Shown here piece after piece: positions 16,444-33,576 of a stretch of DNA of 37,293 nt (positions are counted from its first letter, which is position 1; each line of letters starts with the position of its first letter). The notes beneath the pieces were generated by a model. The model searched no databases. It was given only the letters and a program-made list of their open reading frames with translations, and was not told the DNA's origin. The DNA lies in contig JALTLO010000135.1 in assembly GCA_027001995.1 (NCBI GenBank), positions 1 through 37,293 of the forward strand, read 5' to 3'. Made by a program: the position numbers and the translations under genes. Source of the DNA: Planctomycetota bacterium (GTDB lineage Bacteria; Planctomycetota; GCA-002687715; DRQF01).

Positions 16444-17651
16444 CGGATTTGATCTCCCGCGATGACTTCACCTTCATCCACATAGACAGTGACAACATTG
16501 CCAATCATCTCAACCACGCGGCCTTTGGCAATCGAAGCATTGTGCCGCAAGAACTCTATCTTCATGTCTTTTTCGAATGAGACTGATTGGGTCACTTGGA
16601 CAAAAGCGAGCTTGGTAGCCCGATCATAACCCTGAACCGAGCCCAAAATACGTTCTCCAGACAAGCGTTCCACATCAAAACGAACAATCAGAACAACCTC
16701 AGCTTTGCGACCAACCCCGGCCAATTGGGTGACATCTCGCAGGCGAATGCCAGAGACGACAAAACCCGCATGTTTAGTGCCACATACTAAGCCCTCTGAA
16801 TTCCAACTGGTCTCCGCCAAGATGGGCTTTTCAATGACTAATTCCCGATCATCCCAGCCGACCTTGCCGCGAAACTTAGGAATAGGTCTCTGAACTTGAA
16901 CGAACTTAAAATGGGAATCGATGAAAACGCTCTTTGCAGGCGAATCGTAGACCGCTCCTATGGACCAAGTCATTCCTTCTTTGAAATTGTCTACAACGGG
17001 CTCCAAGAACAGTCGATCCCCAGCTTGTGAGAGTTTGTAGTCCTTCACATAGCTCACCCTCGACCCGGCGCTCATAGAAGCACTTCGGCCATTGAGAAAT
17101 TCCAAACCGCCCGTCTCAATCATGGTTGCGGATTCGTCCCTAGCGATTTCTTCCAGCCTTTGTTCAAGCTGACTTTGCCCAAGGAGTTTGACTTGAGTGG
17201 AAGGGGGGCGTTTCTGCTCAACAGGAAAACGAACAATGGCCGCCCAGATTTTGAATTTCAAGGTACGCATGGGCTCAGCAAGAACCCGTCGAATCACCGC
17301 ACTGGCCGCTTCCACCGATGAGGTCGGGCCGACGATCTCAAGAAATCGCTCAGCGGTTGCTGCGCACCCCGATGGACTGGTTCGAACCAAAGCTCGGTCA
17401 ACAATGTCGACGCCAGAAAGATCCGGAAACAACCGGGGTAATTCTTTCTGCAACCACTGATCGCGAAACTCAACTCTACCGAGGCTGACCGAACCTGTAT
17501 TTTTTGCAGCCGGGACACCTCGCCTTTCAACGATGGTGCAGCGAAGTCGGCTTCTCCCCAGCCCCACCGACTCCAGCTGGAAATTAACGTTCTGGGCACT
17601 GGAAGAAGAGGCGGTTAGCAACACGAAGAAAACCACAGACAGGGCTCTCAC
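16440..17651 (-). CDS. Exported hypothetical protein, secretin-like
   Basis: Signal peptide ending SSA-Q; LEIVG...IRRVL, LNGRSA...SYVKDY...EPVVDNFKEG; small C-terminal beta domain ending GDQIR. GTG start overlaps the sigma stop. Confidence 0.6.
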   Translation of the reverse strand: MRALSVVFFVLLTASSSSAQNVNFQLESVGLGRSRLRCTIVERRGVPAAKNTGSVSLGRVEFRDQWLQKELPRLFPDLSGVDIVDRALVRTSPSGCAATAERFLEIVGPTSSVEAASAVIRRVLAEPMRTLKFKIWAAIVRFPVEQKRPPSTQVKLLGQSQLEQRLEEIARDESATMIETGGLEFLNGRSASMSAGSRVSYVKDYKLSQAGDRLFLEPVVDNFKEGMTWSIGAVYDSPAKSVFIDSHFKFVQVQRPIPKFRGKVGWDDRELVIEKPILAETSWNSEGLVCGTKHAGFVVSGIRLRDVTQLAGVGRKAEVVLIVRFDVERLSGERILGSVQGYDRATKLAFVQVTQSVSFEKDMKIEFLRHNASIAKGRVVEMIGNVVTVYVDEGEVIAGDQIR

Positions 17652-18130
17652 GCTCTCTCCTCCATTTGGTCCGCATCCGTCAACTTGCGTTTGAGTTTAC
17701 CTCGAGCTCGAAACATCCAAGTCTTAACTGTCCCCGTGGGAACTCGAAGCTGCTCAGCGATCTCTTTAACGGAACATTCTTCCCAGAAGAAAAGGACCAA
17801 ACAGGCCCTTTCCTCCCAATTGAGACAATTGAGATCAACCTCAATAGAGGGCACATGAACCTCTGACGAGGGTTCGACAATCAACCCTGTTTCCATGCGA
17901 CCATTGCGCTGGGCAATGCGAATTCTGTCTATTGCCTTGCGCACAGTCGTTTTGCGAATAAATGGCCAAGGATCTCTGCCCCATTTCAGCCGCTCCACAG
18001 CCCGCCACATGGAGAACCACACCTCTTGACAAGCATCCTGGGCATCATCTTCATTGACCAAGATCCGGCGACATAGTGACAAGACGCGGCCTTGATATTG
18101 CTGAATCAGATTGTCGATTGGTTTGCTAAT
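17648..18130 (-). CDS. ECF-type sigma-70 factor
   Basis: Region 2 LIQQYQGRVLSLCRRIL...DAQDACQEVW; region 4 SVKEIAEQLRVPTGTVKTWMFRAR. Start extended from TTG 18082 to ATT 18130, which has AAGGAG 7 nt upstream. Confidence 0.9.
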   Translation of the reverse strand: MSKPIDNLIQQYQGRVLSLCRRILVNEDDAQDACQEVWFSMWRAVERLKWGRDPWPFIRKTTVRKAIDRIRIAQRNGRMETGLIVEPSSEVHVPSIEVDLNCLNWEERACLVLFFWEECSVKEIAEQLRVPTGTVKTWMFRARGKLKRKLTDADQMEERA

Positions 18131-18159
18131 GGTTTTTCTCCTTTGACTTCGCCAAATAC

Positions 18160-18186
18160 TACGCTAATCCCCCCCATTGGGTTTCA
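18160..18186 (-). promoter_or_regulatory. Putative ECF-type autoregulatory promoter
   Basis: Minus strand TGAAAC-N17-CGTA, 30 nt upstream of the sigma start; matches the general ECF AAC/CGT pattern. Confidence 0.6.
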
Positions 18187-18313
18187 AGTCTTTCTTTCCG
18201 AGACAAGTCCACTGCCATGAGAGAGACGAAGGAAAGCCGCATTTACTTCAAATGCCGAAAATCCCGGCCCATCATCACAATTGTCGGTCAATTGAAGAAA
18301 AAGAGGCCTTGAA

Positions 18314-18331
18314 CTCCTAAAAATTTAGGAG
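18314..18331. promoter_or_regulatory. Putative BlaI-family operator 1
   Basis: Inverted repeat CTCCTA-AAAATT-TAGGAG upstream of the BlaI-like gene. Confidence 0.8.
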
Positions 18332-18354
18332 AACACTGGACACGGAGAAATTAA

Positions 18355-18372
18355 CTCCTAAAACAATAGGAG
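18355..18372. promoter_or_regulatory. Putative BlaI-family operator 2
   Basis: Inverted repeat CTCCTA-AAACAA-TAGGAG, 41 bp after operator 1. Confidence 0.8.
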
Positions 18373-18397
18373 ATAGTGACCCCATTGAGGAATATCC

Positions 18398-18814
18398 ATG
18401 GCAACACGAAAATCAACAGAGTTACTCACCAAGCTTGAGCTATCGGTCATGCGCGTCATCTGGGACTCCCAGGGCGACCCCATGACAGTGCGAGAAGTCA
18501 CAGAGCTGATCAATCGCGGCCAAACAAAGGCTCTGGCCTACAATACCGTCCAAACTGTTTTGACCATTTTGCGTGACAAAGGCTTCGTCAAAACCAAACG
18601 AGGCCCTTCCCGGGCACACCTCTTCATGGCCAAGAAAGAACGGGGTCAAGTCAGCGCCAAGATGATCGGGGACTTAGTAGAACGGCTGTTCGACGGAAAA
18701 GTCGAACCCCTGCTCCACCACCTGGTGGACGACGAAGCTCTCTCCCGGACTGCGTTAGAAGATCTGCGGTCATTCATCGAATCCAAATTGGATGATGGGG
18801 AGGAAAAACAATGA
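18398..18814 (+). CDS. BlaI/MecI/CopY family transcriptional repressor
   Basis: LTKLELSVMRVIW, TVREV, LAYNTVQTVLTILRDKGFV, LVERLFDG..LLHHLV; paired with an M56 gene. Confidence 0.95.
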   Translation: MATRKSTELLTKLELSVMRVIWDSQGDPMTVREVTELINRGQTKALAYNTVQTVLTILRDKGFVKTKRGPSRAHLFMAKKERGQVSAKMIGDLVERLFDGKVEPLLHHLVDDEALSRTALEDLRSFIESKLDDGEEKQ

Positions 18815-21120
18815 TGGCTCTTTGGAACACTCATTTTCTGATCAGTTCCGTGACATTAGGGGTGGTGACGGCTCTGACGATCTACTTGGGCCGTGCTCTC
18901 CTCAGTCGGCGCCCAACGATCTACCACGGTTTCTTGGTTTTCATCCTCATGGCATTTTTGATCACTCTGCCTTTGCAGTTCGGAACAGCATATTTACAAA
19001 ACAGTCACCATGAAGATCCCGAACCGCTCAAGAGATCCTCAGACCCTCTTATGCAAAAAGGCGTCGATATCGTCGGAGAAAATGTCATCCCCTTGAAAGA
19101 AATCTTCAGCTCAGAAGACTCCCGTGTAACACGCGCAACCCAGTCCCCCGAGTCATTCTTCGCAGAAAGCCTTACCACAGATTCTGCCACCCCATGGCCC
19201 AGAGACTCGCAGACGGCCTTCGGCCAAGAGCCATTCGTTAGTTGGGTGGAAGCTGGAGAAAATGCAGACATGGGCAGTTCTTCACTAGATTTCACCGACA
19301 GCCAGAATCAAAACCAAGAGCTCAGTCCAAGAGATTCCTCAGCAGCACTGGCCACATTGGTAAACGATGAAAGAAAACAAACGACCCTCGAGCGCCTATC
19401 AAGTTCCTTAGCACCCCATGTTGGTGCTCCTTGGTTGATTTACCTTCACCTATTCGGCGTGGCAATCACCTCAGTTATCGAGCTCTTAAGACTTCGTAAA
19501 ACCCAAGAGATTACAAACACAGCGACACCTGTCACCGACGAACTTACCCTCAAAGTATGGCGGGAAGTGGCCGGGTCCGCATCGGACCGGATTCAATTGT
19601 GCCAATCGCCTCTTGTTCATGCTCCTGTATGCTGGGGAGTCTTCAAGCCTATGATCATCGTCCCAAACTTGATCATCAGAAATGAAAACAAGACACCTTT
19701 CAAATGGGCTTTGCGTCATGAACTCGTTCACCTCAAACGGGGTGACCCACGAACGACATTGTTTCAGAGTGCCTTGAGAATCTTGTTCTGGTTTCATCCT
19801 GCAACCTGGTTCTTCAATTCTGAGTTGAACCGGATGCGTGAGATATCTTGCGACCACACAGTTGTTGGTTCCCAGGGCAGCCGAAAGAGTTACGCCTTGG
19901 CCCTTCTTGAATACGCCGAACAAAAAAACAAGACGTCACGTCTACCAACCTTGTCCCCCACCGCGCCGGCCCTCATTCCTTGGTCGGGCTCCATGTCCCA
20001 ATTAGAAAGGAGAATCAAAATGTTAGCTCAGTCAGAACGGAACACGATTCGCCCCTTGCGCCTCATGCAGGTGTTAGGTGCAGCCTTCGCAGCAGTTTGC
20101 CTCTTTGGAAGCCAAGTCGCCCTTGCCGCCCACATGCCTATTCCTCAATCAACGGACACGGCGCCGAAGGCGGCTCAGATCGATGCCACAACGACGGACA
20201 CCCTGTCTCCACCAGCGCCAGAATTACCTCCGAATGCGACCATCGATTTCATCAAGGCCCCCCGCCCCATGGATGCCACCCTTAAGAGCATCAAGTCATG
20301 GAAAAAAACCAAAACAAAATTCGAGATTGGTGTCATCTTGAAGTCATTCGATTCCAAGTTGACGGAAAATCTGGGCATGCCTAAAGGCACAGGGCTCATC
20401 ATCACAAAGATAATCAAGAACTCTCATGCCGAGCGTTCCGGCCTCAAGGTCAACGATCCCATCGTCAAGATCGACGGGGAGTATGCTTCCATGAAGCAGA
20501 TCAGAGCGGCCAAGAAACGGAGCGGTGGCAAGACACCCATCAAGTTCCTTGTCATGCGCGGGGCATCCATCAAAACGATTGTTGTTAGCTTCAACCACAA
20601 GAAGCAAGTGAAAGTCGCCCCGAAAAGGATCGTCGAGATCTTCGAAGATGAAGAATTAGAAGAAGTAAGTGAATTGGAAATAGTAGAAGAACAGCCATCT
20701 TCAAGAGCTCGGGCGCGCCAAAGCCGGGCCCGAAGCACTGTCGACCGCCAGATCATGAACCTCAACCGACGGATCGATCGCTTGACCAAGACCATGGAAC
20801 GGCAAGCGCGCCTCATCGAACGCCTGATGAAGAGAAACGAGAGCGCCCATCGAATCGCCAAGACAAAGAAAGAACTCAGCCAAGTTGAAACTCTGCTCAA
20901 CGAGCTCAGGAGCCGAAACGCCCTTGAAAGTCGCTTGCTCCAGGTCGATCAAGACTTGAAGAATAAATCCGAAGAGCGCGAACAAGTCAACGCATTGAAG
21001 AAAGCACTCATCGCAGAAAAGGTGGCGAGAATCAACGCCCTGAAATCTGCATCTGCCGAACTAAGAAAACGGGCTCGAGCTAAGAAATCCAACAAGAATA
21101 AGAAAACAAACGGTCGCTAA
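18811..21120 (+). CDS. BlaR1-like M56 metallopeptidase with C-terminal PDZ and coiled coil
   Basis: PVCWGVFKP, HELVH (HExxH, 19717-19731), LFWFHP, REISCD, YALALL, LERRIKML; HtrA-type PDZ at about 20320-20590; charged helical tail. Confidence 0.9.
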   Translation: MMALWNTHFLISSVTLGVVTALTIYLGRALLSRRPTIYHGFLVFILMAFLITLPLQFGTAYLQNSHHEDPEPLKRSSDPLMQKGVDIVGENVIPLKEIFSSEDSRVTRATQSPESFFAESLTTDSATPWPRDSQTAFGQEPFVSWVEAGENADMGSSSLDFTDSQNQNQELSPRDSSAALATLVNDERKQTTLERLSSSLAPHVGAPWLIYLHLFGVAITSVIELLRLRKTQEITNTATPVTDELTLKVWREVAGSASDRIQLCQSPLVHAPVCWGVFKPMIIVPNLIIRNENKTPFKWALRHELVHLKRGDPRTTLFQSALRILFWFHPATWFFNSELNRMREISCDHTVVGSQGSRKSYALALLEYAEQKNKTSRLPTLSPTAPALIPWSGSMSQLERRIKMLAQSERNTIRPLRLMQVLGAAFAAVCLFGSQVALAAHMPIPQSTDTAPKAAQIDATTTDTLSPPAPELPPNATIDFIKAPRPMDATLKSIKSWKKTKTKFEIGVILKSFDSKLTENLGMPKGTGLIITKIIKNSHAERSGLKVNDPIVKIDGEYASMKQIRAAKKRSGGKTPIKFLVMRGASIKTIVVSFNHKKQVKVAPKRIVEIFEDEELEEVSELEIVEEQPSSRARARQSRARSTVDRQIMNLNRRIDRLTKTMERQARLIERLMKRNESAHRIAKTKKELSQVETLLNELRSRNALESRLLQVDQDLKNKSEEREQVNALKKALIAEKVARINALKSASAELRKRARAKKSNKNKKTNGR

Positions 21121-21302: not shown

Positions 21303-23195
21303 GTGAGAGACCTAACAATCGGAAACGGAAAGTTAACCCTAGTGTTTGATGCCAAAGGGCGGGTACGCGAGGTGTTTCACCCTATCCCTGGTCTGTGGAA
21401 CCACACCTTAGGGGCTCCCTGTGAAATCGGCATCATCACCAAAGGAACGACAAACTGGATCGGGGATGGTGGCCAACACGCCACGATCATGAAGAGCTCA
21501 CGGCACCTGGAGGCGCAATGGGAGTTGTCTGGCCCCCAAATCGCGTTGTCTATGTCGACCCTAGTGGACGACACTCTCCCCTTGGTGCGGCGAGACTTTC
21601 ACCTGCAAGCCCATCCAGGGCAACATCTCACTCTTCTACTCCACCATGACTTTCGTCTATTAGAAACGGAATACCAAGATGGAGTTCGATTTCTCCCAGA
21701 TGAATCTGAAATTCGTCACAGCAAACGGCAGCAGTCAATCGGCATCGGTCTTCTTGACTCAAGTCTGACTCCGCGATGGACTCTCGGACGAAGAGACAGT
21801 GAAGATGGCCGGGGTATTCGTGCTCTTGTGGAGCGGCAAGGACTCGACAATAACCCCTGTGCTGTGGGGGCAGGGGAAAGCGTCTTGGGCATTGACCTTA
21901 CCTGCGATGAAAACGGTACCGCCGTGGTTTCGACCTACTTGGCTGCTTGGCAGCACAAAGATGTGGAGACCGCACTTCGCAAGGAGATCTCCGGCACCTG
22001 GAGCATGAAACAATGGGACAAAGAAGAAACCGCCTCCAGACCCAGTTGGACGATCCCCGCTGTGACCTCTCTTTCCATCGACGTCCTCAGCGTTTTCGAA
22101 GACGCGGTCATCGCTTCTCCAGACACGGAAAGCCTCTCTCAAGCCCGAGAACACTACGCCTATGTCTGGCCCCGGGACGGGGCTTTTGTTGCCATGACAT
22201 GGGATCAATTGGGAAACAGGCTAGCCGCCAAGAAGTTCTATGATTTCTGTGTCTCAGGCCTTTCCAGGGAAGGCTTTCTCGGGCAGCGCTATTCTCCGGA
22301 TGGTTCTCCCGGCAGTAGTTGGCACCCAGACTTTGAAAGAGCAAACCCCTACCGTCCGATCCAGGAAGACTCCACGGCTCTTTGCTGTTTGGCTGCGGCT
22401 AAACACGTCGAAGCGGGGCTCCTGAGGGGGGAATCATCTCAATTGGCGGATGATTTGGTGTTTCCTTGCGGCCGATTCTTGCTCAATTATCGCAACGCAG
22501 AAACTGGACTCCCTCATCCCTCCCATGACCTTTGGGAAGAACGATTCGGAATTCACACCTTCACCGTAGCCAGCGTCATAGCTGCCTTGAAAGCCTGCGG
22601 AACCTTGGGGCATAAACTCAATAGAGACGATTATAGAGAATATCTCCAGGCCGCAAAAACCATGGAAGAATCCATGCGCACCCGGCTCTTCCATCAAGAC
22701 GCCGGCCGCTATGCCCGCATGGCCACAGTGGCCGAAAACGGTGATCTTCATTTAGATACCACACCGGACGCATCACTCTGTGGCCTTTTTCTCTTCGATC
22801 ACGACCTTATTCACGACGATTTGATCAAGAAGACAATAGAGTCTATCGAACCTCTCCTCACCGTCGACCAAGGGGTTGGTGGGATTGCTCGCTATTCAGA
22901 CGACCACTATCATCGTCGGAGCAGAAAACCCGAGGTGATCCCTGGCAATCCCTGGCTCATTTGCACCCTCTGGTTCGCTCATTGGCATCTCTTGGTCGGC
23001 GGCAAGTCTTCCAAGGAACAAGCGAGAAAGCTCATGGATTGGGTCATTCGACACATGCGACCCAGCGGCGCCATGCCTGAACAGGTACACCCTCTCAACG
23101 GCGAGAGCATCTCCGTTTGCCCCCTTCTTTGGAGCCACAGCACCTGGATTGACGTCGCCATGGCTGCTCGAAATCCAGACAGCCAGATTCCATAG
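21303..23195 (+). CDS. Glycoside hydrolase family 15 (glucoamylase-like)
   Basis: IGNG N-terminus, YVWPRDG, QEDST, DLWEE, GIARY, GNPW, MPEQV, PLLWSH. Confidence 0.9.
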   Translation: MRDLTIGNGKLTLVFDAKGRVREVFHPIPGLWNHTLGAPCEIGIITKGTTNWIGDGGQHATIMKSSRHLEAQWELSGPQIALSMSTLVDDTLPLVRRDFHLQAHPGQHLTLLLHHDFRLLETEYQDGVRFLPDESEIRHSKRQQSIGIGLLDSSLTPRWTLGRRDSEDGRGIRALVERQGLDNNPCAVGAGESVLGIDLTCDENGTAVVSTYLAAWQHKDVETALRKEISGTWSMKQWDKEETASRPSWTIPAVTSLSIDVLSVFEDAVIASPDTESLSQAREHYAYVWPRDGAFVAMTWDQLGNRLAAKKFYDFCVSGLSREGFLGQRYSPDGSPGSSWHPDFERANPYRPIQEDSTALCCLAAAKHVEAGLLRGESSQLADDLVFPCGRFLLNYRNAETGLPHPSHDLWEERFGIHTFTVASVIAALKACGTLGHKLNRDDYREYLQAAKTMEESMRTRLFHQDAGRYARMATVAENGDLHLDTTPDASLCGLFLFDHDLIHDDLIKKTIESIEPLLTVDQGVGGIARYSDDHYHRRSRKPEVIPGNPWLICTLWFAHWHLLVGGKSSKEQARKLMDWVIRHMRPSGAMPEQVHPLNGESISVCPLLWSHSTWIDVAMAARNPDSQIP

Positions 23196-23252
23196 TGGCG
23201 CTAAAAGGATAGCCGCGTTAGGATCACATGCCCCTTCATCGAGGAGAGAGAA

Positions 23253-24488
23253 ATGCGCAAACGCGTCCTTGGAATGATCATGGCCGGCGGCAAAGGAACA
23301 AGACTCTTTCCCTTAACCCGGGATAGGGCAAAGCCTGCGGTACCATTTGGCTGCAAGTATCGCATCATCGACTTTGCGCTCTCGAATTTCATGAATTCAG
23401 AGATCTACTCAATCTACGTGCTCACTCAGTTTAAGTCCCAGAGCCTGACCGAGCACCTCCAAAGGGGTTGGGGTCACATATCCCTTCTAAAGAATCATTT
23501 CATCATACCCGTGCCAGCCCAAATGCAAACCGGTGAAAGCTGGTACAAAGGAACTGGCGATGCCATCTTCCAAAACCTCAACTTGATCCGTGAGAACCGC
23601 CCCCAATACGTGGCCGTTTTCGGTGGCGATCACATTTACCGCATGGACGTTACCCAAATGGTGAACTTCCATGAGGCCCAAAAAGCCCACGTCACCATTG
23701 CTGGCATTACTGTGCCAATCGAGCAAGCCACAGAATTCGGCGTGATGAAGATTGACGATGATGGACGCATTCTCGATTTCGAAGAAAAACCGGCCAATCC
23801 TTCACCCATGCCAAACGACCCAAGTCGCGCCCTGGTAAGCATGGGGAACTACGTTTTCTCTGAACGCACTTTGACCACCGCTTTGACAGAAGACGCGGCT
23901 ACCGAATCATCTTCTCACGATTTCGGTCAAGATATTCTTCCCCGACTCTTGGCCGAAGGAAAAGACCTCTTCTGCTACAATTTCGAAACGAACATCATTC
24001 CCGGAACCACAGACGAGCCTAATACGTATTGGCGCGATGTTGGAACCATCGACGCCTACTATGAAGCCACCTTAGACTTGAGGGACGTAGTGCCACGCTT
24101 CGATCTATTCAATCCTTATTGGCCCATTGGCACCGCTCAGAGAGATCTCCCTCCGTCAAAATTCGTCCATGACGAACAAGGGCGACGCGGAGAAGCGGTC
24201 CAAACTCTCATCGCTGAGGGAAGCATAATTTCTGGGGCCAGCGTCCAAGGAAGCGTCATCGGGCGTAACGTGCACATCCATTCCTTCGCTGAAATCACAG
24301 ATTCCATCATCATGGACAATGTCGACATCGGTGAAGGTGCCAAGCTCCGGGGAGTGATCATTGACAAGAACGTCCACGTTCCTGCCGGAGAAATCATCGG
24401 CTACGACCGCGAGAAAGACGAAGAGAGATTTTTCGTCTCCGAGTCGGGCATCGTCGTGATTCCCAAGGAACCCAGCAACATGGGTTAG
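23253..24488 (+). CDS. glgC: Glucose-1-phosphate adenylyltransferase
   Basis: MAGGKGTRLFPLTRDRAKPAVPFG, GGDHIYRMD, FEEKP, SMGNYVF, DFGQDI, YWRDVGT, C-terminal beta-helix. Confidence 0.98.
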   Translation: MRKRVLGMIMAGGKGTRLFPLTRDRAKPAVPFGCKYRIIDFALSNFMNSEIYSIYVLTQFKSQSLTEHLQRGWGHISLLKNHFIIPVPAQMQTGESWYKGTGDAIFQNLNLIRENRPQYVAVFGGDHIYRMDVTQMVNFHEAQKAHVTIAGITVPIEQATEFGVMKIDDDGRILDFEEKPANPSPMPNDPSRALVSMGNYVFSERTLTTALTEDAATESSSHDFGQDILPRLLAEGKDLFCYNFETNIIPGTTDEPNTYWRDVGTIDAYYEATLDLRDVVPRFDLFNPYWPIGTAQRDLPPSKFVHDEQGRRGEAVQTLIAEGSIISGASVQGSVIGRNVHIHSFAEITDSIIMDNVDIGEGAKLRGVIIDKNVHVPAGEIIGYDREKDEERFFVSESGIVVIPKEPSNMG

Positions 24489-25588
24489 GACATGAGCCCC
24501 TCATGGGTTTCGTCAATAATCCCCTGAGTTGCCGTCTTTGTGTCGTGAGTTTCTTCGAATCGTGCCAACTGGCGTTGGGCCGAATTACCGCCCTCCAAGA
24601 TTCTTTCAATAACTTCAACCCATCTTTCCGAACCCAAAGCCGCAAAATCATCTTTGAGGAATCGGCAAAGATCGCGAATAGCGTCTCTTGTGGGCACTTC
24701 CTTGGCTTTCTGGAAATCAATCAAATGCCCATCAAGTCCCCACCGGGCCGCCCGATAGACGTTTTCGGCGATCAAGGCTCGACGATACAAGCGATGGCCC
24801 AAATTGTTCTCGTAGAGGTTGAGCAACTTGTGCACGATGGCCTGAAGTAAGGCTGCGATCGCCGCAGTTTCTTCTACTCTTGTGGGCGTATCGCAAACTC
24901 GAAATTCAACCGTATCAAAGAACGGGTGGGGCCGGATATCCCAATAGATCATCTTAGCATTGTCGATACACTTGGTCTTCACCAAGAGTTCAACGAAACG
25001 ACGATACTCATCATAGTCTCCGTAGTAGTCAGGTACTCCCGTGCGCGGGAATCGCTTAAAGATGTGGCTCCTGATCGATCTGTGCCCCGTCATCTTCCCC
25101 TGCCACAAAGGACTGGAGCAACTGAGGGCCAAAAGATGAGGTAGAAAATAGCGCGCCGCATTCATCACTTGAATGCGAGCCTCAGGATCGTCAATTCCGA
25201 TATGACAATGCATACCGTAGATCAGATTAGCTCGGGCTAAGTCTTGAAGTCGATCAAGGATTTCACCGTAACGTTTGCCTTCCGTCAGGTTCACATCTTT
25301 CCAATGAGTCGAAGGGTGGGTTCCTGCTGCCCCCACCAAGAGATTGTGTTTCGTGGCCAAACGAATCACATCTTGGCGGTGCCTGGAAAGTTCGCTGAAT
25401 ACTTCATCTACCGAGCCGCAAACATCCGTCACAATTTCGATGCAAGCCGCGTGAAATTCCGCTTTCAGGTTTTCTCCATGAATCTCTCCAGCTTCCGCAT
25501 GAAACGATTCGGTCTTATTGGAAAGCTCCAGAGTTTCCGGATCGATGAGCATGAGCTCTTCTTCGACACCGAGAGTTAAATTTGCCAT
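24485..25588 (-). CDS. Carboxylate-amine ligase, YbdK/GCS2 family
   Basis: TLGVEEE, GTHP, GMHCHIG, FPRTG, YWDIRP, TVEFRVCD. ATG 25588 has an AAGGAG SD overlapping the upstream stop. Confidence 0.93.
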   Translation of the reverse strand: MANLTLGVEEELMLIDPETLELSNKTESFHAEAGEIHGENLKAEFHAACIEIVTDVCGSVDEVFSELSRHRQDVIRLATKHNLLVGAAGTHPSTHWKDVNLTEGKRYGEILDRLQDLARANLIYGMHCHIGIDDPEARIQVMNAARYFLPHLLALSCSSPLWQGKMTGHRSIRSHIFKRFPRTGVPDYYGDYDEYRRFVELLVKTKCIDNAKMIYWDIRPHPFFDTVEFRVCDTPTRVEETAAIAALLQAIVHKLLNLYENNLGHRLYRRALIAENVYRAARWGLDGHLIDFQKAKEVPTRDAIRDLCRFLKDDFAALGSERWVEVIERILEGGNSAQRQLARFEETHDTKTATQGIIDETHEGLMS

Positions 25589-25598
25589 GTGAGACTCC

Positions 25599-26933
25599 TT
25601 AGAGCGACTTGCCAACGATCAATAGCGGTACTTGCCCGCCACCAGAACTAACATTACACAAACCACCAGCGCCCAAGCGAGCCAATGCCCCGCGCATCTT
25701 CCCTAAGTACATGTAGGGATCGAGATCAACAAAGAGGCTTTGCGACTGGAGGCCATCGTCCATAGCCGGAAACTCTTCAGGAATCATGTGCAACCGCGTT
25801 TGCACGACGTAATCACCCTTCGTCGCTTCCTGCAGCGCCTCAGACCAGGCAGCATCATCCATTTCCCAACCGAGGTAGATCCCTGCGCCGCCATAGTCAT
25901 CATTTGGTTTCATAACGAACATGGCACGATTTTCCGCGACGAAAGGCAACAAGTCGACTTCTTGCCCTTCAAACCTCGTTTTGCATTCCTTGACGTTGCG
26001 CGTCCATGGAACAGCTTGGTCAATTCTCTGGGCCAAATCCTTGGGCAACCAGACATCTCGATCATCGCTGGTCAAAATGGCAAATATAGCTTTTTTGTGA
26101 ACTAACTTGGAGCGAAACGGATTGACCACACAGACATTTCGGTCCCGGTAGGCAAGATACATGTTCTTGACTTCATCGTATTTCTCGATGAACTCGTTCA
26201 TGAGAACACGCTTATAGACCAGGTCAATTTTGCGTCCCTTGGCAGTCAAGTGTTCACCGTCGTACTCCAACTCCCGGGGATCACACACGATCGTCGGGTA
26301 ACCCTGAGACTCGAAATATTCGGCACAGAGATTGAACTCGACCACCGTGGGCACATGGTCATAGTCGACGATGGCGATGGAGGGTGTCTTTCGCCCACCA
26401 TACTCCTGATAGCAGGCTAAGAGCGTGTCCAAGAGTGGCGGCAATGTACGCACATATTCCGTGTCAAACTGTTGAGCGAACTCAAGAGAAATCGGGTGAG
26501 CGAAGAAGACGTCCGCCAACTGATCGCCGAAGGCAGGACCGGCAGGACATTCTCCATTGAGCTCAACGAATTGAACACCTTTGTCAGTAATGAAAGAATC
26601 GAGACGAACGCAAGGAGCAACATGGGCATAGCCAGGGTCATGGGAGACCATCTCCTTTTCGACCTCCGTCAGACACAGCATGGACATCAAAGCTGGATCG
26701 GAAAGAAGCCGGTCTTTCGCCGCCATAATACCACTCATGACGGCCTCAGAGATCAAAGTGAGATTCGCAGCTTCTTCCCGCGTCAAGAATTTCGGCCGCA
26801 AATGATTGCAAAGGTGGCGGCCGCCAAAAACAACCCCAGCGGCTTCCAGTTCCTTTTTGAGACTCGGGATCGACTCGATCCAGGCATCACGCTTGCCGTC
26901 CAAGAGCCCCTGCCATACAGTTTCAGCCGTCAA
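25599..26933 (-). CDS. Circularly permuted ATP-grasp ligase (glutathionylspermidine synthase-like fold)
   Basis: RLDSF, FVELNGECPAG, IDLVYKR, VVNPFRSKLVHKK, VPWTR, VMKPNDDYGGAGIYLG, YVVQ. TTG 26933 has a GGAG SD. Confidence 0.85.
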   Translation of the reverse strand: MTAETVWQGLLDGKRDAWIESIPSLKKELEAAGVVFGGRHLCNHLRPKFLTREEAANLTLISEAVMSGIMAAKDRLLSDPALMSMLCLTEVEKEMVSHDPGYAHVAPCVRLDSFITDKGVQFVELNGECPAGPAFGDQLADVFFAHPISLEFAQQFDTEYVRTLPPLLDTLLACYQEYGGRKTPSIAIVDYDHVPTVVEFNLCAEYFESQGYPTIVCDPRELEYDGEHLTAKGRKIDLVYKRVLMNEFIEKYDEVKNMYLAYRDRNVCVVNPFRSKLVHKKAIFAILTSDDRDVWLPKDLAQRIDQAVPWTRNVKECKTRFEGQEVDLLPFVAENRAMFVMKPNDDYGGAGIYLGWEMDDAAWSEALQEATKGDYVVQTRLHMIPEEFPAMDDGLQSQSLFVDLDPYMYLGKMRGALARLGAGGLCNVSSGGGQVPLLIVGKSL

Positions 26934-27001
26934 TGGAATTCTCCCGATAAAAGTACGAGGCGTTATTATCCACATTGGGGCCAAGCTGTAAATCTACCAC
27001 G

Positions 27002-27029
27002 TTGACAAAAACATGAGGTGCTTGATAAT
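27002..27029 (+). promoter_or_regulatory. Sigma-70-type promoter, probably giving a leaderless mRNA
   Basis: TTGACA-N16-GATAAT, then 6 nt, then ATG 27036. Confidence 0.55.
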
Positions 27030-27035
27030 CCTCGT

Positions 27036-28463
27036 ATGAGTATTTCAATCACATTTTATGGAGCGGCCCAGGGAGTCACTGGTTCCCGGCACGTTCTGGA
27101 CGTCGATGGCACCAAAATCCTCTTCGATTGCGGTATGTTCCAAGGGCGCAGACAAGAGAGTCGCGAACGCAACTCTGCTTTTCCAATTGATCCCAAAACT
27201 ATTTACAATATGGTCCTCACCCATGCTCACATCGATCACAGTGGGGCCTTGCCTATTTTGATCCGTGAAGGTTTCGAAGGCCACATCTATTGCACCCGCG
27301 CAACCGCAGACCTAGCCAAAATCATGCTCAGAGATAGTGGTAACATTCAAGAGCGTGACGCTGAGCATCTGAACAAGAAACGCAAGAGCCATGCCCGCAA
27401 AGAAGGCAAGAAAACACCGAAGAATTTGGTCGAGCCCATTTACACTGTCAAAGACGCCGAGGCTTGCGACTCTTTTTTCTTCCCTGTGTCCTACGATCAG
27501 GAATTTGATGTTGCTCCAGGAATCACAGTCCAGCTGACCGACCAAGGACACATCATTGGGTCTGCCTCAGCCCATGTGACCATCAAACGCCCTGGCAAGA
27601 AAGACGTGCGCGTCGTGTTCAGCGGTGATTTGGGGCGGCCGAATATGCCCATTCTCCGAGATCCAGTTCCCTATCCTCCCTGCGAATACATACTCACAGA
27701 AAGCACCTACGGCGACCGTCTCCACGAACCGATCGGCGACATGGAAGCGCAGCTCGTTGAAGTACTCAAAGAGACCAAGAAACGGGGAGGTCGTCTCATC
27801 ATCCCGGCTTTCTCCGTGGGCAGGACGCAAAACATCATCTACTTCCTGCAAAGCATTTTCTCTCGTGGGGAAATCGAGCCAATCCCGACCTACGTCGACA
27901 GCCCCTTATCGAAAAAGGCAACCAAGGTTTACTTCAATCATCCTGAGTGTTTCGATAAAGAAACTCTGGCTTTTCTAAAGAAGGAAGACGAAGACCGCAT
28001 GAGCAACTTCCATTACGTCGAGTCTGTCGACGAATCGAAGGCACTCAATGACATGCCAAATCCCATGATCATCATCACGTCTTCGGGCATGTGCGAAGCG
28101 GGTCGTATCCTCCACCATCTCAAACGAACTGTTGAAGACCCAAAGAACGTCATTTGCATCGTTGGCTACATGGCGGAGCACACCTTGGGGCGGCGCATAC
28201 GAAAGAAAGAAAAGAACATCCGCATCTTCGGCCAAGAGTACGAACTCAATGCAGGGGTGGTAACAATGAATGGATTCTCCGCCCATGGTGACCAAGCTGG
28301 CATCATCCACTCTTTAGAGCACCTGAAGGATACACTCAAGAAAGTCATCCTGATTCACGGAGAAGAAACTCAAAGCCTCCCCCTAAAGGAAAAGCTAGAA
28401 GATGAAGGCCACAAGAACGTTGAGATTGCCAAATTATTCTCAACCATTGTCCTTGAGGATTAG
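27036..28463 (+). CDS. Metallo-beta-lactamase fold, beta-CASP family hydrolase/ribonuclease
   Basis: GAAQGVTGS, DCGMFQG, THAHIDHSG, GHIIGS, SGDLG, ESTYG, PAFSVGRTQ, GMCEAGRILHHL, FSAHGD, IHGE. Confidence 0.93.
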   Translation: MSISITFYGAAQGVTGSRHVLDVDGTKILFDCGMFQGRRQESRERNSAFPIDPKTIYNMVLTHAHIDHSGALPILIREGFEGHIYCTRATADLAKIMLRDSGNIQERDAEHLNKKRKSHARKEGKKTPKNLVEPIYTVKDAEACDSFFFPVSYDQEFDVAPGITVQLTDQGHIIGSASAHVTIKRPGKKDVRVVFSGDLGRPNMPILRDPVPYPPCEYILTESTYGDRLHEPIGDMEAQLVEVLKETKKRGGRLIIPAFSVGRTQNIIYFLQSIFSRGEIEPIPTYVDSPLSKKATKVYFNHPECFDKETLAFLKKEDEDRMSNFHYVESVDESKALNDMPNPMIIITSSGMCEAGRILHHLKRTVEDPKNVICIVGYMAEHTLGRRIRKKEKNIRIFGQEYELNAGVVTMNGFSAHGDQAGIIHSLEHLKDTLKKVILIHGEETQSLPLKEKLEDEGHKNVEIAKLFSTIVLED

Positions 28464-28519
28464 AAAACGAACAAGCCAATGGACCTATTCAGGAGAGTAA
28501 GAGCCATCGGTGTTCAAAT

Positions 28520-28557
28520 CGAAGGGAAAGGTCCACACTAACCGGACCTTCCCTTCG
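28520..28557. terminator. Hairpin between convergent genes (likely bidirectional terminator)
   Basis: CGAAGGGAAAGGTCC-N9-GGACCTTCCCTTCG (one bulge) between the stops at 28463 and 28571; no clear U tract. Confidence 0.55.
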
Positions 28558-28570
28558 TCCGCCGACTTGG

Positions 28571-29653
28571 CTACTTAGCGGCGCTTTTTCTTTTCGACTT
28601 CTTCTTTGCAACGGTCTTTTTCTTAGTCGATGCTTTCTTCTTCGTGGTTACTTTTTTCTTGGCGCTCTTCTTGACTGCTGCCTTCTTGGTCGAAGACTTT
28701 GTTGATTTCTTCTTAGCTCGTTTCTTGGGTAGAGGAATGCCCCCGGCAACAAAGGCGTCCGAAGTCAAAGACTTGTATTTCACCTTGCCAGATTCCAAAG
28801 CCAACTTGACGACGGCATCCATAATGCGATCGAAGTAGACGGGGGTCACCGACCAATACTCCATGTCGGGAGCGAAGTTGGTGAAGTCGATAGCGTAAGG
28901 AACACCGTCTTCGAAGGCGAACTCGACTGTGTTGATGTCATAACCCAGGCCTTTGTTGATATTGCGACAATCCTTGATGACGCGCTTGGTCTCAGCTTTT
29001 GTCAGATAATCATCATCCAACGGCAGGTAACAACGATTCTCGACGTCATAGCGGGTGATGATCACATCTTTGCCGCCGAAGCAGAAGCATCGAATGTAGC
29101 GGTCGAAGTCGACGGCTTGTTGCATCACCATGGTCTCTGTGCCGGACTGGTCATAGCGATGAATCAGTTCTTCAACGCTGTGCACTTGGTCCACTTGCTT
29201 CCATCCCCCGCCGGTGGCAGGTTTGAGAAACGCAGGAAGGCCCACCCACTCCACATGCTCTTCCCAAGGGATGGGGTACATGAGGTTGCGCAAGGTTTCA
29301 GGAGCCACATCATCGCTGTGGTCCTTATTGGGCAAAAGCACAGTTCTGGGAATGGCAAGTCCCAAACGATCCGCTAAGGCATAGCCGAAGAATTTATCGT
29401 CGGCAGTTGTCCAAAATGGATTATTGATCACCCGTGTACCCGCCAGTTGGGCCTGCTTGAGTGCCAATTTGTAGTAAGGCACGTCATGGGAGATACGATC
29501 GATAATGACATCGTAGTCAGCCAAAGCATCATGGCGAGTTCCGCCCAATTCGATCATCTCCGCCGTCACATCATCCCGGCCAAGATCCGCGATTCGTTCT
29601 AAGAACACCTTGGGAAAAGACTCTTCCCGACCGACCAGCAATCCAATTTTCAT
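28571..29653 (-). CDS. RimK-like ATP-grasp ligase with Lys-rich histone-H1-like tail
   Basis: VIIDRISH, VINNPFW..ADDKFF, IPRTVLLP, FLKPATGGGW, NTVEF, IDFTN; last ~52 aa are almost all K/A/S/T/R/V. Start ATG 29653 (or GTG 29662). Confidence 0.85.
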   Translation of the reverse strand: MKIGLLVGREESFPKVFLERIADLGRDDVTAEMIELGGTRHDALADYDVIIDRISHDVPYYKLALKQAQLAGTRVINNPFWTTADDKFFGYALADRLGLAIPRTVLLPNKDHSDDVAPETLRNLMYPIPWEEHVEWVGLPAFLKPATGGGWKQVDQVHSVEELIHRYDQSGTETMVMQQAVDFDRYIRCFCFGGKDVIITRYDVENRCYLPLDDDYLTKAETKRVIKDCRNINKGLGYDINTVEFAFEDGVPYAIDFTNFAPDMEYWSVTPVYFDRIMDAVVKLALESGKVKYKSLTSDAFVAGGIPLPKKRAKKKSTKSSTKKAAVKKSAKKKVTTKKKASTKKKTVAKKKSKRKSAAK

Positions 29654-29889
29654 CACATTCACCTTTGGAAATCATGAGTTCAGGCTGCAGCAACCCGACC
29701 CCTTGTTTTGTATGAGTTGAGGGTATCTCCACCCCCGAGGTGGTGAATTCTATTTGTCTGCCAGCGCCCTCCCAACCACCAGCTTGACTTTATTCCCGTT
29801 CTTCACCAACTCAGAAGGGAGAGATTGAACTTCTGACATTTCCTGGGTTTCACAAATCCTCAGCGAGGGTTATCTTATCCCACTGTTCC

Positions 29890-31800
29890 ATGGGAAATCA
29901 TATGACCGACAATACACGGGTGCTTTTTGTCACGCCTGAGCTTTCGCCCTACTCCAAGGTTGGTGGATTAGGTGAAGTATCTGCTGGCCTCACGAAAGCT
30001 CTTAAATCACTCCAAGTCGATGTGCGGATCATCACGCCCCTCTATTCTCATATGCGAGAGTCGCTGGGGCATCTGAAAACCGTTGCTCAGAGTATCCCCT
30101 TCGCATTCGCTGGTGAAAACCGCCCATTTAACCTTTTAGCTATGGACACGGACCCCCGGGACGTCCCGGTTTTCCTCATCGAGGCCCCAGACTTCTTCGA
30201 GATTGAGGATGCTATCTATGGCAATGAGCTAGGACCCACCGGCCTCGGTGACCTGCGTTGGCTTTACTTCAGCGCGGCTATTCGCCATGCCTGCGAGCGC
30301 ATGAGCTTTAAGCCCAACCTCCTTCACGTTCACGATTGGCATAGCGCTTTAGTGCCTGCCCTTTACCGTTCAGAACATTACTTCGACGAAGATTGCGCTG
30401 ATACGGCTTGCGTCCTGACGATTCATAACGCCGCTTTTCAAGGCCGTATGTCCACAGACGACTACCGCAGAAGCGGATTGAGAACAGATCTGCTCAGCGA
30501 CTGGTACCTGCTTCAGGGAGGAGATATCAACCTTTTGAAGGCTGGAACCATCTTTGCAGAACGGGTCACCACCGTTTCCAAACGTTATGCAACGGAGCTC
30601 AAGAGCCCAGATCAAGGAAAAGGGCTGGAAGCCATTTTTGAAGCGCGAGCCGAGCACTTCCACGGCATTCCCAATGGCCTGGATAGCCAAGAGTGGGATC
30701 CGGCCCATGACACACTCATCCCCCATCACTTTGACGCCAATAACATGGAAGGCAAAAAAGCCAACAAGAAAGCCCTTCTGGAAGCCTTCGCCTTGGACCC
30801 CAGTTCTGGCCCTCTCTTAGCGGTTGTTGCCAGGCTCACATGGCAAAAGGGCATCGACATCATCTTAGATGCCCTCCCTGCCCTTTTCGCCAGGCGAAAG
30901 GACCTTCGGTTAGTGATCTTAGGCCAAGGGGACAAGGACGTCGAGTTGGCGGTCACGGAAACCGCAAAGAAGTACCCTGGCCGGGTAGGAGTTGCTCTTA
31001 AGTTCGACCCGGCTTTGGCCCACTTAATCGAAGCGGGTTCTGACATCTTCCTCATGCCATCTCGCTATGAGCCTTGCGGACTCAATCAAATGATCTCCCA
31101 GCGCTACGGCACAATTCCTATCGTTCGCGAAACGGGTGGTTTGGCCGACACGGTTGTCGCCTACGAAGGGGGCAATCTGAAAGAAGCCACGGGGTTTGTC
31201 TTTTCGAAGGCCAGTGCTGAGGCATTCACCGACATCACCAAACGGGCCCTCACTTTGTTTCGAAGAAGTGGTAGCTGGAGACGCTTGGTCCAAAACGCCA
31301 TGGCTCAAGATTGGGGCTGGGACGAAAGTGCCTCTGCATACTTGCGGGTTTACGAAGAGGCCATTGCCATGCGCCTCAATCGAGAAAGAGAAACAGAATT
31401 ACTGTCTCATATGCGCTTGGAACCTACTGCAACCCTGCCAGAAGAGCAGGCACAAATCCCGGTTTACTACCACAAAGACACCTTGCGCTTGATGCTCAAA
31501 GACCCTGAGACCATTTGGGCCTATTGGGAAGTCCAAGGACCTCGAGGTAAGGCCATCTTGGATTCCCTTTCTGAAAGCCAGAAGTGGGAATCGACCTGGA
31601 CTCTGAGAATCGAAAACCTGGACACGCATTTCTCCTGGGAAATCGAAGTCGAAGGCATGGCCAAGAATTGGTTTATCACCGTTGATCCCAATCAGCGCTA
31701 TCGTTGCGAACTCTTGATGCAGACCACAGATTTCCCCCGATGCGTCATCCTGGGATCCAACACAATTCAAACCCCAAAGAAAATGGTGCCCCTAGGATGA
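29890..31800 (+). CDS. glgA: Glycogen synthase with a C-terminal DUF4912-like extension
   Basis: KVGGLGEV, HVHDWH, TIHNAAFQG, VTTVSKRYA, RLTWQKG, MPSRYEPCGLNQM, TGGLADTV; extra domain from about 31456 (LRLMLKDPETIWAYWEV...NWFI...SNTIQTP). Confidence 0.93.
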   Translation: MGNHMTDNTRVLFVTPELSPYSKVGGLGEVSAGLTKALKSLQVDVRIITPLYSHMRESLGHLKTVAQSIPFAFAGENRPFNLLAMDTDPRDVPVFLIEAPDFFEIEDAIYGNELGPTGLGDLRWLYFSAAIRHACERMSFKPNLLHVHDWHSALVPALYRSEHYFDEDCADTACVLTIHNAAFQGRMSTDDYRRSGLRTDLLSDWYLLQGGDINLLKAGTIFAERVTTVSKRYATELKSPDQGKGLEAIFEARAEHFHGIPNGLDSQEWDPAHDTLIPHHFDANNMEGKKANKKALLEAFALDPSSGPLLAVVARLTWQKGIDIILDALPALFARRKDLRLVILGQGDKDVELAVTETAKKYPGRVGVALKFDPALAHLIEAGSDIFLMPSRYEPCGLNQMISQRYGTIPIVRETGGLADTVVAYEGGNLKEATGFVFSKASAEAFTDITKRALTLFRRSGSWRRLVQNAMAQDWGWDESASAYLRVYEEAIAMRLNRERETELLSHMRLEPTATLPEEQAQIPVYYHKDTLRLMLKDPETIWAYWEVQGPRGKAILDSLSESQKWESTWTLRIENLDTHFSWEIEVEGMAKNWFITVDPNQRYRCELLMQTTDFPRCVILGSNTIQTPKKMVPLG

Positions 31801-33392
31801 GTCCAAAGCAAGGATCCGTGTGCATCGTCCTTCACACCCACCTTCCCTATGTCCACCACCCAGACTTCGAAGACTTCCTGGAAGAAGATTGGCTATTTGA
31901 GGCCATAACAGAGACTTATCTGCCTCTGCTCTTCGTCATGAATGACTTATGGATAGACAAGGTTCCTTTCCGACTCACATTTTCCATGACTCCACCTTTG
32001 GTGCATATGTTGAGATGCTCCGACCTCATGGCGAAATTCGAGATCTACCTTGAGAAGAGAATCAAATTAGCTGGCTTAGAAGTCAAACGGCATGCCGGAG
32101 ATCGGCTTCGCTTAGAAACTGCTCGCCACTACCAGCTTCGGTTTGAGCAAATGCTTAGTTTCTTCCATGCCTGTGACCGAGATCTCTCCGCCGCATTCCG
32201 CAGATTCCAGGACTTAGGTCTCATCGAGATCATTGCCAGCGCAGCGACTCATGGTTTCCTCCCCCTGTTTCGGACTGAAGCGGCCACCAAAGCCCAGATT
32301 GCCTTGGGTGTTCAACTACACAAAGATGTCTTCGGCGGGGCTCCCAAGGGATTCTGGCTACCAGAATGTGCTATTGGCCCAGGAATCGATCGCATGTTGG
32401 TGGACGAGGGAATCGCCTTCACAGTGTTGGACACCCATGCCCTCACCGGCGCGGAACCACCCCCTGAAAACGGGAGCTTTCGTCCCGTCAAGACACCGGC
32501 CGGTTTAGCTGCTTTCGGTCGAGACTCGGAATGTTCCCAACAAGTTTGGTCATCCATCGTCGGTTATCCTGGGGACCCAGACTACCGGGAACTCTATCGA
32601 GACATCGGCTACGACGCTGACTACCGCTACATTCTGCCCTTCCTCAAACAAGATGGTGTGCGCCGCAATATCGGCATGAAATACCACCGCATCACCGGGG
32701 ACGTGCCCCTTCATGAAAAAGAACTCTATTCCCCTTCCTTGGCGAAGGCCCGTGCGGCCACCCACGCGGGTAATTTCCTTTTCAATCGAGGACAGCAGAT
32801 TGCTCACCAAAATGAAGTACAGGGGAAACCCGTGGTCATCACAGCACCATTCGACACCGAGTTATTCGGCCACTGGTGGTACGAAGGGCCATGGTTCTTA
32901 GAGGAGGTATTTCGACAGGCGGCGGATCATGCCGACGATGCCACCTTCAATCTCTGTACTCCCAGTGAAATCCTCCAGCAGTCGGCAGAAATCCATGAGG
33001 CCAAAATCGGCCCTTGCTCCTGGGGCGAAGACGGTTTCTACAAGGTCTGGTTGAATGACAAAAACCAGTGGTTTTGGCCCCATCTCCATGAGATGGAAGA
33101 GCGCATGGTCGTCTGGGCCAAGAAAACTCTGCCTGACAGAGAATTGCAACGCCGCATTCTTCACCAGATGGCCCGGGAGCTGCTCCTGGCTCAATCCAGC
33201 GATTGGCCCTTCATTTTGACCATGGAAACATCCACTTGGTACGCAGAGAAACGCTTCCGCGACCATGTATTTCGTTTCTTCACCTTGGAAGACATGCTGC
33301 TCAATGATGAGGTAAACGTCGAGGAATTGGCATCATGGGAGCGGCAAGACGCGATTTTCCCCGACATGGATATCCGTATCTTCGCTTCTTAA
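31797..33392 (+). CDS. GH57 1,4-alpha-glucan branching enzyme (DUF1957-type C-terminus)
   Basis: HTHLPYV, EEDWLFEAITETYLP, ATHGFLP, GFWLPEC, PFDTELFGHWWYEG, RELLLAQSSDWPF. ATG 31797 overlaps the glgA stop (ATGA). Confidence 0.93.
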   Translation: MSPKQGSVCIVLHTHLPYVHHPDFEDFLEEDWLFEAITETYLPLLFVMNDLWIDKVPFRLTFSMTPPLVHMLRCSDLMAKFEIYLEKRIKLAGLEVKRHAGDRLRLETARHYQLRFEQMLSFFHACDRDLSAAFRRFQDLGLIEIIASAATHGFLPLFRTEAATKAQIALGVQLHKDVFGGAPKGFWLPECAIGPGIDRMLVDEGIAFTVLDTHALTGAEPPPENGSFRPVKTPAGLAAFGRDSECSQQVWSSIVGYPGDPDYRELYRDIGYDADYRYILPFLKQDGVRRNIGMKYHRITGDVPLHEKELYSPSLAKARAATHAGNFLFNRGQQIAHQNEVQGKPVVITAPFDTELFGHWWYEGPWFLEEVFRQAADHADDATFNLCTPSEILQQSAEIHEAKIGPCSWGEDGFYKVWLNDKNQWFWPHLHEMEERMVVWAKKTLPDRELQRRILHQMARELLLAQSSDWPFILTMETSTWYAEKRFRDHVFRFFTLEDMLLNDEVNVEELASWERQDAIFPDMDIRIFAS

Positions 33393-33496: not shown

Positions 33497-33569
<73 letters not shown>

Positions 33570-33576
33570 CTCCCTC

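Follow-up and report, generated by a model that had tools for sequence, protein, structure and literature searches.

Amide-ligase genes nested in a glycogen gene cluster of a Planctomycetota bacterium as one version of a widespread module

Introduction

The closest described counterparts of the genes treated here are the ligases of glutathione, glutathionylspermidine and RimK chemistry and, as a storage system, cyanophycin metabolism. Neighbourhoods in which several amidoligases stand together with peptidases were reportedly predicted by Iyer, Abhiman, Burroughs and Aravind in 2009, with a product that was not known. The Anbu operon likewise combines several amide ligases with peptidases in one neighbourhood (PMC6376114). 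Here, we analyzed a stretch of DNA of 37,293 nucleotides from a Planctomycetota bacterium (contig JALTLO010000135.1; hereafter the window), in which genes for a YbdK/GCS2 carboxylate-amine ligase, a circularly permuted ATP-grasp ligase and an ATP-grasp protein of the RimK-like type (RimK1) lie inside a cluster of glycogen genes. The names borne by the closest homologues likewise point to Planctomycetota. The genome is referred to as G000 (92% complete), relatives are labelled G0xx and their loci L0xx.

The module to which these genes belong brings several amide ligases and peptidases together, as do the neighbourhoods reportedly predicted in 2009; unlike the Anbu/alpha-E operon, no alpha-E, transglutaminase or Anbu gene is present among the 29 open reading frames (ORFs) scanned in the window. 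It is similar to cyanophycin metabolism (CphA/CphB), where ATP-dependent synthesis of an amide polymer is paired with a serine peptidase, in that a sister module described below carries a peptidase of family S51, to which cyanophycinase belongs. It differs in that the ligases are separate single-domain proteins, S51 was not found in G000 and CphA did not exceed the cut-off in any of five genomes searched, the one partial match in G000 scoring 119.6 against 850 bits. By analogy, the module appears to resemble cyanophycin as a store and the chemistry of glutathione, glutathionylspermidine and RimK in its reactions, while falling outside each of these pathways by the member genes tested. A literature search, in which subscription journals lay largely outside the reach and supplements were not covered, found no paper on the gene set or its link to glycogen. 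What is new here is the version with YbdK and a glutathione-synthetase-fold ligase, a non-ribosomal amide-ligase cluster tied to glycogen genes.

Three Ligases Within a Glycogen Cluster

Scans of the window ORFs against Pfam and curated profiles placed the three ligase genes, all on the minus strand, between two pairs of plus-strand glycogen genes. The first pair consists of a gene for a GH15 glucoamylase-like glucan hydrolase (21303..23195, +; PF00723 E 1e-17, TIGR01577 below cut-off) and glgC for ADP-glucose pyrophosphorylase (23253..24488, +; TIGR02091 471.8 against a cut-off of 424.9), the second of glgA, encoding a GT5 glycogen synthase with a C-terminal DUF4912 (29890..31800, +; TIGR02095 503.4 against 328.45; PF16258 E 4e-14), and the gene for a GH57 glycogen branching enzyme (31797..33392, +; PF03065 and PF09210), the start of which overlaps the glgA stop. 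The enclosed ligase genes encode YbdK (24485..25588, −; 367 aa), the permuted ATP-grasp (25599..26933, −; 444 aa, TTG start) and RimK1 (28571..29653, −; 360 aa), the last divergent from glgA across a gap at 29654..29889. All seven genes named in a preliminary description of this DNA were recovered at the places and on the strands given there, and the divergence from glgA was confirmed. The nesting of the ligases also held, but the description had overlooked a metallo-beta-lactamase/beta-CASP nuclease-type gene (27036..28463, +; 475 aa; PF10996, PF07521 and PF00753, Beta-Casp E 5e-38) that splits the trio. Since this gene stands between the permuted ATP-grasp and RimK1 genes, the three ligases do not form one unit, and a single operon of the three was ruled out by the insert together with separate promoter-like sites; RimK1 makes up a unit of its own. 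No ligase shares the strand of the glg genes.

Among the three ligases, only YbdK passes a curated cut-off (NF010039, 446.5 against 371 bits; TIGR02050, 289.3 against 176.4; PF04107, 197 against 21) and only YbdK belongs to a characterised subfamily. It aligns with E. coli YbdK (1r8g) over 335 residues at E 7e-49, and the metal- and substrate-binding motifs GxExE, HxHxG, WDIRP and ExRxxD are present at the aligned positions. For the E. coli enzyme we know of no established true amine substrate. Unlike its E. coli counterpart, the window gene lies tail-to-tail with glgC, the stop codons of the two convergent genes overlapping by 4 bases, and it is predicted to be translationally coupled to the permuted ATP-grasp gene, as its ATG start is preceded by an AAGGAG ribosome site in overlap with the stop codon upstream.

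The other two ligases, the permuted ATP-grasp and RimK1, were assigned by fold and motifs, both falling below the curated cut-offs. The former scores 19.4 bits with PF14403, for which the Pfam gathering cut-off is 32 bits. Its AlphaFold2 (AF2) model (pLDDT 94.5) matched in Foldseek human glutathione synthetase (GS; E 2e-17), Cp1B (4e-14) and GspS (1e-13), and also YgiC/YjfC, over a range of E 2e-17 to 6e-12 with TM of about 0.6–0.7 and identities of 12–16%; the best structural matches were eukaryote-type glutathione synthetases, with identity to GS of 12–14%. The protein shares the fold with all of these, and its motifs RxD (at 110) and ExN (at 124) are counterparts of the catalytic residues R139/D141/E163/N165 given for Cp1B (PMC12568646). 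KP and GxG motifs are present as well, and across the aligned homologues the R, D, E, N and K positions do not vary (30 of 30). Apart from the low identity, the window protein differs from this group in lying below the Pfam cut-offs and in having no amidase domain. Its subfamily comprises at least 2938 proteins, and no characterised member was found among the solved structures searched.

RimK1 reaches 33.6 bits with TIGR00768 (E 2.5e-8), far below the RimK family cut-off of 143.4 bits. The motifs DDKF, KPxxGGGW, NTVEF and IDFxN are intact in the window copy, and the model of a paralogue on contig C58 with 43% identity matched RimK (Z 21.8), ArgX (21.0) and LysX/ArgX (20.8). Judged from this paralogue's model, RimK1 is a predicted RimK-like three-domain ATP-grasp, and the window protein itself has the ATP-binding lysines, the glycine loop and the metal ligands. 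It is like RimK and ArgX/LysX in fold and size, with Z scores within about 1 of each other; it is unlike them in its identity of only 16–20%, in motifs of its own (DRISH, KPxxGGGW and IDFxN) and in its surroundings, where no rpsF or LysW neighbour was seen. Its tail of 55 residues (window 28571–28740) contains 25 lysines and is histone-like; similar tails occur in 44 of 120 homologues and could bind DNA, polyphosphate or a polyanionic product. From their motifs, all three window ligases look active.

Conservation Within the Order

The arrangement was compared in 22 relatives from four families of one small Planctomycetota order. Two or three ligases lie between GH15-glgC and glgA-GH57 in 19 of them, which is more than chance, given that the share of this genome found no further than 10 kb from a glucan gene is 1.4%. 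The three exceptions are G001, represented by a contig of 3.3 kb, and G005 (88% complete) and G021 (76%), in which glgA was not found. All three ligases occur in 7 of the 22, two of these with the genes split over two contigs; for this reason a fixed trio was rejected. The remaining sets are YbdK with the permuted ATP-grasp (7), YbdK with RimK1 (3) and the permuted ATP-grasp with RimK1 (2).

The partner esterase (PF00756) is encoded in 20 of 22 genomes of the order, usually unlinked. The window indeed contains no esterase, as had been described, and the gene in this genome is located on another contig (G000:C83:10410-11126), with S119, D194 and H226 conserved. Furthermore, G000 has a second pair of RimK-like and permuted ATP-grasp genes on C58 and a GCS2-CBS protein on C48; these paralogues may replace module members that are missing. 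The C58 pair is followed on the same strand by a low-complexity protein gene, a cyclophilin gene and one for an alpha-glucan phosphorylase (glgP), and glgP lies a few genes downstream of the pair in four of eight loci of family f1, counting long and short ones, the carriers named being G000, G001, G002, G004 and G007. The low-complexity protein of this family (L050:7841-8836) is a Cys/Lys/Ala-rich repeat protein of 331 aa with a signal-peptide-like start and without a Pfam match.

A Widespread Module With Repeated Links to Glycogen Genes

The window genes are one version of a widespread module in which a RimK-like ATP-grasp and a PF00756 esterase, the core shared by the module versions, are joined by a GCS2 ligase and often by a permuted ATP-grasp, belonging to either of two subfamilies, and a peptidase. 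The preliminary description had missed the esterase and the peptidases by which this wider module is defined. Among 80 metagenome loci, the RimK-like gene has the esterase beside it in 57 and YbdK in 61; of 193 loci outside the family, 49 have an M29 aminopeptidase and 40 a permuted ATP-grasp of the 400-aa subfamily; and 73 GTDB loci of the RimK2 type carry the permuted ATP-grasp in 56, YbdK in 17 and the esterase in 17. An S51 peptidase was present in 26 of 38 Planctomycetota loci examined, a class I GATase in three low-GC loci, and a fusion of an S8 subtilase with CBM48 heads the operon in 8 of the 73 RimK2-type loci, all from Chloroflexota (L112, L114, L116, L118 and L120-L123; several of these have two tandem YbdK genes). 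The presence of a peptidase with most versions fits a product that is made and then broken down again. The module is common, with 8000 of 8000 scored candidates for one RimK-like query, and a described product of it was not found. Its carriers belong to Acidobacteriota, Chloroflexota and Planctomycetota as well as to other groups that are mostly uncultured. Viral contigs gave no match in the search; on plasmids there was none for three RimK-like queries, and the permuted ATP-grasp found only matches of 22–28%.

Linkage to glycogen genes recurs in distant versions. The RimK4 subfamily of other Planctomycetota, 31% identical to the window protein, is encoded in operons of the order S51 peptidase, Fes-like esterase, RimK4 and esterase, often with three more ATP-grasp genes and a GCS2-CBS gene, and glgC, glgA or glgP is present in 20 of the 28 loci, which represent 8 of 12 families; one of the operons includes a polyphosphate kinase 2 (PPK2) gene (L354:12005-12928). 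In family f46, all four RimK3-type loci adjoin GH13 or glgC, with GlgB confirmed in L393, and glgB and glgC enclose the module in a way similar to the nesting in the window; glutamine synthetase (glnA) stands beside two of the four (L393:14899-16314; L398:765-2180). In the phylum of G045, 5 of 14 RimK4 genes lie 3–8 kb from glgA or glgC, judged by gene coordinates only, and in four genomes of a phylum other than Planctomycetota glgA is located upstream of RimK4 on the same strand. At the ends of L241 and L250 are truncated ORFs; a guess that these are alpha-amylases was not confirmed.

In two unrooted trees, a quick one of 118 rows and a second of 37 rows from a sampling without Bacteroidota, the linked sets fall in different clades with unlinked ones between them. 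A single clade of glucan-linked sets was rejected (p-AU 2e-4 and 2e-68) for groups that were defined by linkage but tested after the first tree had been inspected. As the trees have no root, repeated gain is not separable from ancestral linkage followed by many losses. The co-occurrence of ligase and glg genes that the preliminary description proposed to test was borne out within the order and in non-monophyletic versions of the module, but it is absent at most loci outside Planctomycetota.

Possible Function of the Module

The gene content suggests that a small amide or short peptide based on glutamate is built by the module and broken down again in step with glycogen, serving as a nitrogen reserve or stress solute, a proposal to which we give about an even chance of being correct. 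In its favour are the placement of the ligases within the order, the esterase and peptidase partners, the glucan linkage in separate clades, the neighbouring glutamine synthetase and PPK2 genes and the lack of a CphA match over the cut-off. In the scheme that we infer, from the substrates and the sequence of reactions to the co-regulation with glycogen, YbdK would couple an amine or amino acid to glutamate through its gamma-carboxyl, as expected from its family, and the permuted ATP-grasp would extend this product at a free carboxyl with an amino acid or polyamine, in the manner of glutathione synthetase, GspS and YgiC. The RimK-like enzyme would add one or more glutamates as its relatives RimK and ArgX/LysX suggest, and the units would be set free again by the Ser-Asp-His esterase and by peptidases (M29, S51, class I GATase or S8). 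The position of the module beside glycogen genes would then reflect shared control and not the use of glycogen as a substrate. Such control has a precedent in the sigF mutant of M. smegmatis, in which a carboxylate-amine ligase, treS and glgX are all reduced (PMC4694148). The non-ribosomal amide or peptide product envisaged in the preliminary description is kept in part, in that the linkage recurs and glutathione as an alternative is weakened, while the trio as a fixed unit is not.

Several observations weigh against this proposal. The arrangement in 19 of 22 relatives is one inherited event, as kin are not independent. The trio is unstable and is therefore a poor fit to a fixed three-step line: RimK1 is missing in 7 of the 22 relatives, YbdK was not found in two genomes of genus g2 that keep the gene for the GS-fold ligase, and the permuted ATP-grasp is missing from the cluster in three genomes of genus g7. 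In the latter (L047, L048 and L049), a divergent permuted ATP-grasp is encoded outside the glycogen cluster, close to two genes for M14 carboxypeptidases. Furthermore, among 12 relatives with a glg-linked RimK1 the copy is intact in 4 and degenerate in 8 (L036, L038, L040, L041, L042, L345, L346 and L347), with altered or lost ATP-binding lysines, GGGW loop or DxxN. The degenerate copies are under purifying selection in the three pairs tested, with dN/dS values of about 0.09–0.18, one of these with saturated dS, as compared to 0.02–0.12 for YbdK, and are possible pseudo-enzymes. With queries from elsewhere, a search of this genome yielded none of the M29, S51, S8 and GATase partners. In addition, Cp1B, which has the same fold as the permuted ATP-grasp, takes a dicarboxylic acid, so that the family is not bound to glutamate (PMC12568646). 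Any fixed pathway has its main weakness in this variation of gene content.

The link to glycogen is itself far from constant. None of the genes glgC, glgA, GH57, GH15, glgP and GH13 was found in 25 Acidobacteriota loci (22 of at least 15 kb) from 23 of 25 matching genomes, or in any of the 73 RimK2-type loci (45 of at least 15 kb; 8 carry CBM48), and a glucan gene was present in only 2 of the 80 metagenome loci (21 of at least 15 kb, many short). Of 15 Chloroflexota loci, 2 are linked, each to a GH57 gene about 3 kb away. Among the RimK4 loci, 8 of 28 are unlinked, three of these near contig ends, as are 9 of 14 genomes in the phylum of G045. The whole operon occurs in seven loci of Obscuribacterales, where G043 has no glgC over the cut-off and no glgA was found in it; in four genomes of this group, of completeness not stated, GT5 matches are weak or lacking, and GH13 genes do occur. 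The link is not general, being absent from many loci, and with an operon in G043, where glgA and glgC were not found, glycogen looks like a frequent companion and not like a required substrate.

Among the other explanations, the ligases could build an aminoacyl or peptidyl group that the PF00756 enzyme attaches to or removes from glucan hydroxyls, resulting in a reversibly acylated, nitrogen-bearing glycogen. The glycogen-binding subtilase-CBM48 fusion at the head of the Chloroflexota operons, the same-strand glgA upstream of RimK4 and the fact that the steadiest partner is an esterase rather than a ligase speak for it, and so does the second RimK4 esterase with its Fes-like N-terminal domain, the closest solved relatives of which include enterochelin and feruloyl esterases. 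PF00756 also includes sugar acyltransferases (antigen 85). However, the Obscuribacterales have the whole operon where glgC and glgA are weak or were not found, G005 keeps RimK2, a second permuted ATP-grasp and the esterase although glgC, glgA and GH57 were not found, and the window ligases carry no carbohydrate-binding domain, which leaves this explanation doubtful. The neighbourhood might instead reflect the history of gene order, namely a set of general stress or stationary-phase genes in which nothing but a shared sigma factor would connect the ligases with glycogen functionally. That ligases and glg genes of the window lie on opposite strands, that an unrelated beta-CASP gene is inserted among the ligases, that linkage in Acidobacteriota and metagenomes is near background and that each linked clade may reflect one ancestral event would all be expected in this case. 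Such an origin is nevertheless improbable, given that at least three RimK-like clades are linked to different glucan genes (glgC, glgA, glgB, glgP and CBM48) in different orders in comparison with the low background, that the f46 nesting resembles that of the window and that glgP follows the C58 pair in family f1.

Protein glutamylation would be a further use of the ligases, which could mark GlgA, GlgC or granule proteins, with peptidases reversing the mark and the glg-linked RimK copy acting partly as a non-catalytic regulator. YbdK and GS-fold enzymes act on small molecules, a general point that argues against a protein target, as does the absence of RimK1 from seven relatives; the neighbours common to at least four loci, moreover, showed neither a conserved target nor a gene for a small carrier. 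A precursor-peptide system was also rejected, as no shared small ORF was seen in a scan that covered ORFs of at least 100 aa. RimK, the top structural match, is described as placing up to fifteen glutamates on S6 (PMC4431377), and a linked copy that is degenerate in most relatives that have it and yet under purifying selection in the pairs tested would suit a regulator; on balance, glutamylation has a low probability. Alternatively, YbdK and the GS-fold ligase could provide gamma-glutamylcysteine and glutathione or a close thiol analogue in a non-canonical manner. A 2004 paper by Lehmann reportedly, going by its title, concerns YbdK's activity as a gamma-glutamyl:cysteine ligase, eukaryote-type glutathione synthetases are the best structural matches of the permuted ATP-grasp, and no GshB was found that would do this step otherwise. 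Neither the biosynthesis nor the use of glutathione is evident, however, as GshB (PF02955) and GST (PF13417) were found in none of five genomes of the order (86–97% complete) and EgtB exceeded the cut-off in none of five. The low identity to GS, the GS-fold gene without YbdK in genus g2 and the RimK-like enzyme, esterase and glucan link that would be left unexplained point in the same direction. The notion that the trio simply makes glutathione, put forward earlier as a refuting outcome, is weakened accordingly, and a non-canonical synthetase is the least probable of the explanations considered.

Returning to a glutamate-based reserve or stress compound, a bolder form of it would be a combined carbon-nitrogen store in several phyla, in which a glutamate-rich peptide is tethered to the glycogen granule by ester links or physically and is mobilised by granule-bound esterases and peptidases such as the subtilase-CBM48 fusion; we consider this unlikely. 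That distant versions of the module stand beside glycogen genes several times is a hint of a reserve or stress compound made alongside, or on, glycogen. The repeated tie tells under which condition (carbon storage, starvation) and where (at the granule) one should look, and the question of the product is therefore testable. If true, a new nitrogen reserve or a modified glycogen would extend the short list of bacterial storage compounds, and the three ligase subfamilies are unexplored amide-forming catalysts.

Other Features of the Cluster

The genome has the members of the GlgC-GlgA glycogen pathway, with GlgC, GlgA, a branching enzyme and degradative enzymes present, to which the alpha-glucan phosphorylase on C58 and a second glgA on C202 are added. 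Since no GH13 (PF00128) was matched in this genome, GH57 is the only branching-enzyme candidate found; GH13 was likewise not found in G012 and G005 besides G000. In this order, GH57, GH15 and a phosphorylase seem to carry glycogen metabolism by themselves. The fusion of GlgA with DUF4912 in one frame, directly before GH57, is present in 17 of 17 distinct relative loci in which DUF4912 was detected. DUF4912 may be a glucan- or GH57-binding module; a literature search on it turned up no mention among the papers listed.

The beta-CASP gene was rejected as a module member, as it occurs in only 5 of 22 relatives, all of family f1, and in none of the 193 outside loci; it is probably a lineage-specific insert and not part of the system. 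Sigma-70-like sites precede the permuted ATP-grasp gene (26992-26965, −; 10 of 12 consensus positions) and the beta-CASP gene (27002-27029, +; 11 of 12), lying back to back at 26965..27029. The gap between RimK1 and glgA contains two weak matches, one on the RimK-like side (29775-29747, −; 9 of 12) and one on the glgA side (29849-29876, +; 9 of 12). A consensus scan found 10 such sites in 12.7 kb, which is not above shuffled sequences (8.5 ± 2.9), and 4 of the 10 fall in the two divergent gaps.

Upstream of GH15, an ECF sigma factor gene is divergent from genes for a BlaI-type repressor and a BlaR1/M56 peptidase with PDZ (window 17648-21120); the repressor and peptidase pair also precedes GH15 in two relatives. 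A tRNA-Ser called by ARAGORN at 13590-13681 lies inside an aminotransferase gene (13335-14501) and is probably false. The glycogen cluster is closed by a tRNA-Ala (33497-33570).

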